Below are positions 1 to 61,456 of a DNA stretch of 64,000 bases, in pieces. This DNA comes from Escherichia coli. GTDB lineage: Bacteria > Pseudomonadota > Gammaproteobacteria > Enterobacterales > Enterobacteriaceae. The notes beneath the pieces are model-generated. The model worked only from the letters and a program-made list of their open reading frames with translations. It had not been told where the DNA came from and did not search any database. The position numbers and the translations under genes are program-made. The stretch lies in the NCBI RefSeq assembly GCF_022846255.1, contig NZ_AP025682.1; one strand, 5' to 3'. Numbering within the stretch: the first letter of the stretch is position 1; each line of letters starts with the position of its first letter.

Positions 1-330
1 GGCTTTACCTACATTCCGCACCGTTTCGCGCTGGGCTTTGCCGAAGCGCCGCGCGGCGACGATATCCACTGGAGCATGACCGGCGACAACCAGAAGCTGT
101 ACCGCTGGCGCTGCCGTGCCGCGACCTACGCGAACTGGCCGACCCTGCGCTACATGCTGCGCGGCAACACCGTTTCTGATGCGCCGCTGATTATTGGTAG
201 CCTGGACCCTTGCTACTCCTGTACTGACCGCATGACCGTGGTCGATGTGCGTAAGAAGAAGAGCAAAGTGGTGCCGTACAAAGAACTTGAGCGCTACAGC
301 ATTGAGCGTAAAAACTCGCCGCTGAAATAA
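1..330 (+). CDS. hycE: Formate hydrogenlyase / hydrogenase-3 large subunit, C-terminal part (5' end lies outside the window)
   Basis: Frame-1 ORF open from base 1 to the stop at 330; C-terminal peptide with a CxxC motif; immediately followed by hycF, hycG, hycH and hycI in operon order. Confidence 0.85.
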   Translation, partial: GFTYIPHRFALGFAEAPRGDDIHWSMTGDNQKLYRWRCRAATYANWPTLRYMLRGNTVSDAPLIIGSLDPCYSCTDRMTVVDVRKKKSKVVPYKELERYSIERKNSPLK

Positions 331-17677: not shown

Positions 17678-19215
<1,538 letters not shown>

Positions 19216-21180: not shown

Positions 21181-21182
21181 TA

Positions 21183-22321
<1,139 letters not shown>

Positions 22322-22389: not shown

Positions 22390-22890
22390 ATGACAGAATC
22401 AACATCCCGTCGCCCGGCATATGCTCGCCTGTTGGATCGTGCGGTACGCATTCTGGCGGTGCGCGATCACAGTGAGCAAGAACTGCGACGTAAACTCGCG
22501 GCACCGATTATGGGCAAAAATGGCCCGGAAGAGATTGATGCCACGGCAGAAGATTACGAGCGCGTTATTGCCTGGTGCCACGAACATGGCTATCTTGATG
22601 ACAGCCGATTTGTTGCGCGCTTTATCGCCAGCCGTAGCCGCAAAGGTTATGGACCTGCGCGTATTCGTCAGGAACTGAATCAGAAAGGTATTTCCCGCGA
22701 AGCGACAGAAAAAGCGATGCGTGAATGTGACATCGACTGGTGCGCACTGGCGCGCGATCAGGCGACGCGAAAATATGGCGAACCTTTGCCAACTGTCTTT
22801 TCAGAAAAAGTTAAGATTCAGCGTTTTCTGCTCTATCGTGGCTATCTGATGGAAGATATCCAGGATATTTGGCGAAATTTTGCCGACTGA
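22390..22890 (+). CDS. recX: RecA regulator RecX
   Basis: 166 aa immediately downstream of recA on the same strand. Confidence 0.93.
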
Positions 22891-58830: not shown

Positions 58831-60492
58831 TTACGCCGCAAGCAGTTCTTTCGCATTCGCCAGTGTGTTACGTGTGACTTCACTGCCACCAAGCAGGCGC
58901 GCCAACTCTTGTAACCGCGCTTTTTTATCCAGGGATTGCATATGCGTTTCTGTCATCGCACCATCGGTTTCTTTGCTGACAAAATAGTGTTGATGACCAC
59001 ATCCCGCGACTTGTGGCAGGTGGGTAACACACATCACCTGAGTTGATTCGCCAAGTTGACGTAGCAGTTTGCCGACAACTGCCGCTGTTGGGCCGCTAAT
59101 CCCTACATCCACTTCATCAAAAATCAGTGCCGGGGTTTCCATTTTACGCGCGGTAATGACCTGGATTGCCAATGCGATGCGGGACAACTCACCACCGGAT
59201 GCGACTTTGGCAATAGGCTGCATTGGCTGACCTGGGTTGGTGGTTACCCGAAACTCAATACGATCAGCGCCGTCAGCGCCCAGGTGATGCTCGTCAAATT
59301 TAACATCGATCGTAAACTGCCCATGTGGCATAGAGAGTGCATGCATACTATCGGTGATCAGCTGTGCCAACTCATTTGCATAATGCTGGCGTTGCTGGTG
59401 TAACGCGCGCGCCGTTTCCAGTGCCTGCTGATGATGTTTCGTTACCGCCAGCGCGAGCGTTTCTTGTGAGTCGGCCTGATCGTCCAGTTGCTGCTGTTCT
59501 TCCAGTAGCGACTGGTAATACTGTGGCAATGCCTCAGGGCTGACGTGATGTTTACGTGCCAGCGAAATCTGTTTTGAGATGCGCTGTTCAAGTTCAAACA
59601 GTCGGTTGGGATCGAGATCCAGACGATCGCAGTAGTGGCGCAGTTCATCACTGGCTTCAGCAATCTGGATGGTAGCCTCTTCCAGCATATCAAGTACGCC
59701 GGACAGTTTGCTGTCCATGCCAATCAATTCGCTCACCAGTTGTTTAGCCGTGTAAAGTTGACTTTGCAGGTTTGCGTCTTCACCGTCAGCCATTAATGCC
59801 AATGCATTCTGGCTGGTGGTCAGCAATTGACCGCTGTTCGCCAGACGTTTGTACTCTTCGTCGATTTGCTCAAACTCTCCAGGCTGCGGATTAAATTCGT
59901 TAAGTTCTTTTAATTGGTATTGCAGCAGCTCCGCACGAGCGGCGCGTTCCTGACTTAACTGTTGATGATGCGCGAGGTCACGGCAGCTTTGATGCCACAA
60001 ATGATAACGTGCGGTCATTTCCTGGAGCTGAGAGGTTTCATTGGCATAGCCATCAAGCAGGAATTTTTGGTGCTCGGGTTTGGTGAGTAACTGATGAGCG
60101 TGCTGACCATGGATCTGAATCAGCAACTGACCCAGTTCGCGCAGTTGTGACAGAGGAACAGCTGTACCGTTGATGAAACCACGGGAGCGACCATCGCTGC
60201 TGATTACGCGACGAAGCAAACATTCATGCCCGTCTTCAAGCTGGTTTTCTTCCAGCCAACGCAGGGCCGCTGGCGTATCTTTCAGAGAAAAACGGGCGCA
60301 CAGGTCGGCACGAGCAGCGCCGGTACGCACCATGTCGGCTTCAGCGCGACCACCGAGACAAAGGCCGAGGGCATCTATTGCAATAGATTTACCCGCGCCG
60401 GTCTCGCCAGTTATTACGGTCATGCCGCTATGAAAATCAATCTCAAGCTCACGAACGATAGCAAAGTTGCTGATGGTCAGTTGTGCCAACAT
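58831..60492 (-). CDS. recN: DNA repair protein RecN (SMC-like ATPase)
   Basis: 553 aa; Walker A GETGAGKS at the N-terminus and coiled-coil middle. Confidence 0.96.
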
Positions 60493-60520
60493 AGTTGTTT
60501 TCCTGTATGAAAAACCATTA

Positions 60521-60558
60521 CTGTTATTGTGTACAGTATAAACTGGTTTTATATACAG
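60521..60558 (-). promoter_or_regulatory. Two LexA (SOS) boxes of the recN promoter
   Basis: CTGttattgtgtaCAG (60521-60536) and CTGgttttatataCAG (60543-60558), both CTG-N10-CAG; a weaker third candidate lies at about 60503. Confidence 0.85.
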
Positions 60559-60577
60559 TAAAGAGGCTGGCGTAAAA

Positions 60578-61456
60578 TTAGAATAATTTTTTTGACCAGC
60601 CGAGCTTGGTGCTTAATGTATTGAAATAACTGTAATCTTTCGGATGAATCAGATTCAGATGGTAATCACAGCGACGAATCAGGACATCTTCACCTTCCTG
60701 AATCGGAAGTGCTATCTGGCTGTCGCAACTGATTTCCAGGTCGTTACGGCGATGCGAAAAACGTAGACGGATCGTGCTGCTGCTGTTTATGACCAGTGGT
60801 CGTGCTGACAACGTATGCGGGAACATGGGCACCAGGGTAATCGCATCCAGAGAGGGTGTCAGAATAGGACCGCCCGCAGAGAGGGAATATGCGGTGGAGC
60901 CTGTTGGCGTCGAAATAATCAGTCCATCGGAACGCTGCGAAAACGCAAAGATCTCGTCGATATACACTTCGAACTCAATCATATGCGCCACTTTGCCAGG
61001 ATGAAGTACCACTTCGTTAATCGCCGTGCTGATGCGTTTCTGGCAATCTTGCTGACAGACTTGCGCTTCCAGCAAAAAACGTTTCTCGCTGATGTAGTGG
61101 CCTTCCAGCACATCGGCTAATTGTTGCTGGGCGTTATCGGGATCAAGGTCAGTCAGGAAACCCAGGTTGCCACGGTTGATTCCAATAACTTTAATATCGT
61201 AGCGGGCGAGCGTGCGCGCCGCGCCCAGCATATTACCGTCGCCGCCAACGACAACCGCGAGATCAGCCTGTTGCCCAATCTCCGCGAGCGTGCCAGTTTT
61301 CACATTCTTCAGTTGCAGTTCGTGAGCGATTTGTTGCTCAACGATGACCTCGTAACCTTTTGTGCACAGCCAGCGGTAGAGCATTTCATGTGTTGTCAGT
61401 GCAGTGGGGTGCCGTGGGTGTCCCACAATGCCAATACACTTGAAATGATTATTCAT
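60578..61456 (-). CDS. nadK: NAD kinase
   Basis: 292 aa; GGDG motif ([11 protein letters not shown]). Confidence 0.95.

Follow-up and report, generated by a model that had tools for sequence, protein, structure and literature searches.

The nadK–recN spacer of Escherichia coli as the known SOS-regulated recN promoter with three LexA operators

The LexA operator of gammaproteobacteria, the SOS box, has the consensus TACTG(TA)5CAGTA, which served as our reference. Colicin promoters contain two overlapping LexA boxes and are subject to multi-operator SOS repression, as is recN. Few SOS genes are repressed as tightly or induced as strongly as recN, whose promoter is in wide use for reporting the SOS response. 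The primary mapping of the recN operators is reportedly that of Rostas et al. in 1987 (NAR 15:5041). The operators are also said to appear in the compilations of LexA boxes by Lewis et al. (1994) and by Fernandez de Henestrosa et al. (2000), and these compilations reportedly give heterology index (HI) values of about 5, 9 and 11 for the three E. coli recN boxes. In Salmonella, recN has three LexA boxes, which lie 8, 26 and 48 bp from the ATG (PMC8072944, Table 1). The recN SOS operator region is already known, and the present analysis adds nothing new to it.

We analysed a stretch of 64,000 nucleotides (the window), which is E. coli chromosome. We read the site studied here as the E. coli recN promoter under SOS control, with three LexA operators, and give this reading a probability of about 0.97. 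The site occupies positions 60493-60577, which are the entire nadK–recN spacer of 85 bp, and the nadK stop codon (60580-60578) forms the boundary of this control region. The features of the locus are as follows.

58831..60492, minus strand: recN CDS, the regulated gene, 553 aa (ORF list; NCBIfam NF008121 RecN, 1066.7 bits against a cutoff of 418; RefSeq annotation of identical E. coli DNA)
60501..60504, minus strand: Shine-Dalgarno (SD) sequence AGGA, 8 nt upstream of the recN ATG (read from the sequence; columns invariant in 32 Enterobacterales sequences)
60501..60520, minus strand: LexA box 3, weak and imperfect, TAATGGTTTTTCATACAGGA (HI 12.20, rank 4 of 63,981)
60519..60538, minus strand: LexA box 2, TACTGTACACAATAACAGTA (HI 9.23, rank 3 of 63,981)
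60535..60540, minus strand: -10-like hexamer TATACT of the recN promoter (promoter scan)
60541..60560, minus strand: LexA box 1, promoter-distal and strongest, TACTGTATATAAAACCAGTT (HI 4.06, rank 1 of 63,981)
60557..60562, minus strand: -35-like hexamer TTTACT of the recN promoter (promoter scan)
60578..61456, minus strand: nadK (NAD kinase), upstream of recN (ORF list; NCBIfam NF002893, 568.6 bits)

Read on the recN strand, the spacer is ...CCTCTT TACTGTATATAAAACCAGTT TA TACTGTACACAATAACAGTA ATGGTTTTTCATACAGGA AAACAACT ATG. The ORFs of the window agree with the K-12 annotation in the gene order grpE - nadK - recN - bamE. A 301-bp query around the site matched many E. coli genomes at 100%, and the region was found in 5425 of 5426 complete E. 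coli genomes, annotated every time with nadK on one side and recN on the other. The spacer is at least 99% identical in 5360 of the 5426 E. coli records, and its variation among E. coli genomes is uninformative. One of the 5426 genomes lacks the spacer, one genome has two copies of it, and one occurrence is on a plasmid record.

Compared with E. coli K-12 MG1655, 120 of 121 aligned bases are identical, and the recN promoter/operator region of K-12 is the same locus: the three boxes, both hexamers and the SD are equal base for base. The sole difference is at 60496, where the window has A and K-12 has G. This base lies 4 nt upstream of the ATG in the SD-ATG spacer, outside every box and the SD. 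With a 120-bp query, about one third of the sampled E. coli genomes gave an exact match to the window, and a single base differed in most of the rest. The published operators could be compared through later papers that reproduce their sequences. Table 4 of PMC3009722 gives the sequence of box 1 for the LexA box of recN, boxes 1 and 2 are both listed for recN in Supplementary Table S1 of PMC6015884, and a third recN LexA box is acknowledged in PMC8072944. A full-text literature search gave no main-text match to the sequences of box 2 and box 3, and box 2 was found only in the supplement of PMC6015884. The window thus agrees with the published recN boxes in the sequences of boxes 1 and 2. The Salmonella enterica recN promoter is like that of E. 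coli, since its box distances of 8, 26 and 48 bp are the same as in the window. The two differ in which box is strongest: the published Salmonella HI values of 12.97, 7.72 and 8.82 make the middle box the strongest, whereas in E. coli it is the distal box (HI 4.06 with our own matrix, on a scale not comparable with published HI).

The first-pass annotation of this DNA had described tandem LexA boxes upstream of recN, as two CTG-N10-CAG palindromes 6 bp apart with a weaker third candidate nearby, and this description is borne out. The palindromes are CTGTTATTGTGTACAG at 60521-60536 and CTGGTTTTATATACAG at 60543-60558, exactly where it had placed them, and the 6-bp gap between them is TATAAA (60537-60542). 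The gene is RecN by its NF008121 match, the boxes lie in the nadK–recN spacer and the sequences of boxes 1 and 2 are those of published recN boxes. On the recN strand the core of box 1 runs from 60558 to 60543 and that of box 2 from 60536 to 60521; box 1 is 48 bp and box 2 is 26 bp away from the recN ATG. The third candidate, CTGTATGAAAAACCAT on the plus strand at 60503-60518, is box 3, with the core ATG-N10-CAG (60518-60503); the box is 8 bp away from the ATG and 18 bp away from box 2. The LexA operator core, a CTG-N10-CAG dyad with an A/T-rich centre, has both arms in boxes 1 and 2 and one perfect arm in box 3. Box 3 deviates from the consensus by ATG for CTG and by a terminal GGA for GTA, and its right arm overlaps the SD.

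For scoring, a heterology-index matrix was built from 16 E. coli LexA boxes of PMC3009722 Table 4, with recN excluded, and symmetrised; a lower HI is a better match. This matrix differs from the published matrix of Lewis et al., and absolute HI values given here are therefore not comparable with published ones. The 16 training boxes themselves range from 1.8 to 11.7. A scan with a LexA matrix had been proposed as a check, and in it the three recN 20-mers took ranks 1, 3 and 4 of the 63,981 positions in the window, with HI far below the chance level. All three are under the operator criterion of HI < 15 when that criterion, quoted from PMC11002266 (citing Lewis 1994), is applied to our matrix. 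In 200 dinucleotide shuffles of the window there was no site at HI <= 9.3, and sites at HI <= 12.2 occurred at a mean of 0.155 per 64 kb.

Rank 2 in the window is TACTGTATGAGCATACAGTA at 21181-21200 (core 21183-21198). It is the classical recA LexA box and matches the recA entry of PMC3009722 Table 4. It is located upstream of a plus-strand ORF of recA size (21245..22321), which is followed by an ORF of recX size (22390..22890). With the recA box and the recN boxes, the window therefore contains two SOS promoters about 39 kb apart. The fifth-best match to the matrix, GAATGGTTTTTAATACAGTG at 18106-18125 (HI 12.8), resembles recN box 3. We rejected it as a LexA site and take it as a chance match; it is most likely fortuitous because it lies within the srlE (glucitol PTS IIB) CDS and 0.36 such sites per window are expected by chance.

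The spacer is AT-rich (68% A+T), and the palindromes might in principle be chance products of this composition with no regulatory role. The bare pattern CTG-N10-CAG is indeed frequent, with 25 occurrences in the window against 13.4 expected, and since it is so common it proves little alone. However, the tandem pattern CTG-N10-CAG-N6-CTG-N10-CAG occurs once in the window and in none of 100 shuffles, and random sequence of spacer composition is expected to contain only 0.00024 sites at HI <= 9.3 and 0.0018 sites at HI <= 12.2 per 85 bp. The sequences are also identical to published operators (PMC3009722, PMC6015884), and the arrangement is conserved over several orders of Gammaproteobacteria, with zero matches in control windows among the matches listed. 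Statistics and conservation together rule out a chance origin, and what probability it retains is negligible.

The conservation data come from recN loci that were retrieved by a degenerate DNA pattern in the N-terminal codons of recN, one genome per species, so that sampling was independent of the operators. At least 120 loci were retrieved, 119 of them with enough upstream sequence to scan, and all 120 loci listed encode RecN N-termini, with 34-98% identity over the first 250 aa where the gene covers that length. Among the matches listed, at least one box at HI <= 13 was present in positions -150 to -1 in 116 of the 119 loci; this and the following counts are not independent events because the sequences are phylogenetically related. 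No box at HI <= 13 was found in either control window, inside the CDS or at -300 to -151, in any of the 119 loci (again among the matches listed). Nearly all Enterobacterales loci have a box at the position of box 1, and 81 of 92 adjacent pairs of strong boxes in the 119 scanned loci are exactly 22 bp apart, both among the matches listed. The 22-bp pair occurs in Enterobacterales, Vibrionaceae, Aeromonadales and Shewanella. Pasteurellaceae and Stutzerimonas mostly have a single box among the matches listed.

Three loci have no LexA box at HI <= 13 within 150 bp of recN, namely L031 and L081 (Haemophilus sputorum and H. paraphrohaemolyticus) and L107 (a Verrucomicrobia MAG). SOS control of recN may therefore be lost or re-specified in them. 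The E. coli matrix may not fit the Verrucomicrobia locus L107. Two Shewanella loci (L006 and L041) have three strong boxes (HI 4-7) at 63, 41 and 21 bp from the ATG, with spacings of 22 and 20 bp, a three-box route that differs from the weak box at +18 of enterics and vibrios.

A promoter scan of the recN strand gave TTTACT, a 16-bp spacer and TATACT, with 9 of 12 matches, at 60562-60535. This was the sole promoter-like site within 60300-60800. The TACT of box 1 is the last four bases of the -35-like hexamer, so that box 1 overlaps the end of this hexamer and the promoter spacer, and the TACT of box 2 is likewise the last four bases of the -10-like hexamer. Since each hexamer ends in the TACT of a box, the 22 bp from the centre of box 1 to that of box 2 are the length of one hexamer and the 16-bp spacer together. 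The predicted transcription start would be near 60529-60527, some 7 nt beyond the -10 hexamer, and box 2 would thus cover it as well. The one sigma-70-like promoter in the spacer, which is on the strand of recN, is therefore overlapped by the boxes. The same arrangement is seen elsewhere: in the 81 loci with the 22-bp pair, TTTACT always straddles the start of the upstream box, and TATACT that of the downstream box in 77 (among the matches listed). Given the wide conservation of the pair together with the hexamers, this design, a promoter made of two operators, is old and widespread, in line with existing comparative SOS studies.

General knowledge of the SOS response and the literature suggest how the promoter would work. 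As long as the DNA is undamaged, boxes 1 and 2 would be occupied by LexA dimers, which would cover both recognition elements of RNA polymerase and block initiation. Box 3 lies 18 bp beyond box 2, on the ribosome-binding site and the beginning of the transcribed region, and may add a third LexA dimer. Once damage occurs, RecA filaments that form on single-stranded DNA would stimulate the self-cleavage of LexA. The operators would then be vacated, and recN would be strongly induced. The presence of several operators would account for the reports of very low basal expression of recN and of a very large ratio of induction.

The multi-operator SOS repression that the first-pass annotation had proposed for this gene is supported. 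Published expression data fit tight repression and strong induction of recN. recN is among the top UV-induced genes in UV tiling arrays (PMC3009722), and it is among the most strongly induced genes in a time course after ciprofloxacin, with a log2 fold change of 2.8-4.6 (PMC11002266). In a lexA-defective strain, recN expression is raised 128-fold (PMC12211044), and Salmonella recN is induced 39-fold by nalidixic acid (PMC8072944). In contrast, deletion of lexA raised the expression of a chromosomal recN-lacZ fusion only about 2-3-fold (PMC6015884), far below the other reports.

The same study (Wurihan et al. 2018, PMC6015884) proposed a role for DnaA as a co-repressor of the recN promoter, acting at a DnaA box that overlaps a LexA box. 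Expression of recN-lacZ was about 2-3-fold higher in a dnaA(A345S) mutant, an effect additive with that of the lexA deletion, and overlapping LexA and DnaA boxes are listed there for the recN promoters of several enterobacteria. However, the nadK–recN spacer contains no exact TTWTNCACA. It has two matches with one mismatch (60506-60514 and 60549-60557), but such matches occur in the window at the background rate (102 observed against 102.8 expected), and a DnaA box is therefore unsupported from the sequence. The best candidate containing CACA, CTGTACACA in box 2, has two mismatches, and the spacer of box 2 varies between genera. We consider co-repression by DnaA through such a box improbable at this locus.

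The role of box 3 is less clear-cut than that of boxes 1 and 2. Across 32 Enterobacterales that share this layout without gaps, the columns of box 1 carry 1.82 bits of information on average, those of box 2 1.47 and those of box 3 1.46, compared with 0.69 in the flank upstream of the -35 hexamer and 0.76 between the SD and the ATG. The right arm of box 3, ACAGGA, includes the invariant AGGA of the SD. It is thus confounded with the ribosome-binding site, and its conservation could reflect the latter instead. Only boxes 1 and 2 might be true operators, and box 3 might be non-functional for LexA and owe its conservation to the SD and the recN mRNA leader with which it overlaps. Of the three sites it has the poorest score, and it has no CTG arm. 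In most genera of Enterobacteriaceae its slot has an HI of 13-18.6, above the threshold, and in Shewanella the 22-bp pair is kept and the slot is empty, with an HI of 26-34 (both among the matches listed). The third Salmonella recN box was missed by FIMO and added manually by the authors (PMC8072944).

Other data argue against a role in the leader only. The conservation of box 3 reaches its left arm, well beyond the SD. Among the matches listed, NTG-N10-CAG is kept at exactly +18 from box 2 in 24 of 24 Enterobacteriaceae and most other Enterobacterales, in 15 of 18 Vibrionaceae and in 4 of 4 Aeromonadales, with a median HI of 12.6-15.5 in this slot. A full CTG-N10-CAG is restored in Rahnella and Mangrovibacter, and some Vibrio box 3 sites have an HI of 9.4-10.3. 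Leader RNA structure does not account for the conservation of box 3. The search for Rfam families in the spacer and leader gave none, the best being a chance match to PYLIS_3 below threshold (19.6 bits against a gathering score of 38). The fold of the leader is unexceptional (z-score -0.58), and no conserved leader structure was found, with an alifold consensus energy of about 0 kcal/mol and no compensatory changes. On these three grounds we discarded a known cis-regulatory RNA as an element of the spacer or leader. Because the +18 slot is conserved and RNA offers no explanation for it, we prefer to read box 3 as a LexA site that is weak and probably auxiliary; that it serves the leader alone and not LexA seems rather unlikely to us, though this alternative carries some weight.

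Box 3, which in Enterobacterales, Vibrionaceae and Aeromonadales keeps its place over the ribosome-binding site at exactly +18 from box 2, might also be more than a spare operator. It could nucleate a complex of three LexA dimers that sets the unusually low basal level and a switch-like, bistable induction of recN. Alternatively, it could act as a roadblock to read-through from nadK. No terminator-like hairpin was found between the nadK stop and the recN promoter (60535-60580), and read-through from nadK into the region of the LexA boxes is therefore conceivable. Both roles are speculative and we regard them as improbable; the idea of three dimers may already be in the literature.

Our analysis is of value only as a positive control, in that a textbook regulatory element was recognised from raw sequence with the right coordinates and the right gene. 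The embedding of both hexamers in two LexA boxes at a fixed spacing of 22 bp, in 81 recN loci (among the matches listed) from several gammaproteobacterial orders, may be a useful descriptive summary and leaves the known picture unchanged. recN is like lexA, which has two boxes, in that more than one LexA dimer per promoter leads to tighter repression. It is unlike lexA and the colicin promoters in having three sites, and in that both promoter hexamers lie inside the left arms of two boxes with a fixed spacing of 22 bp.
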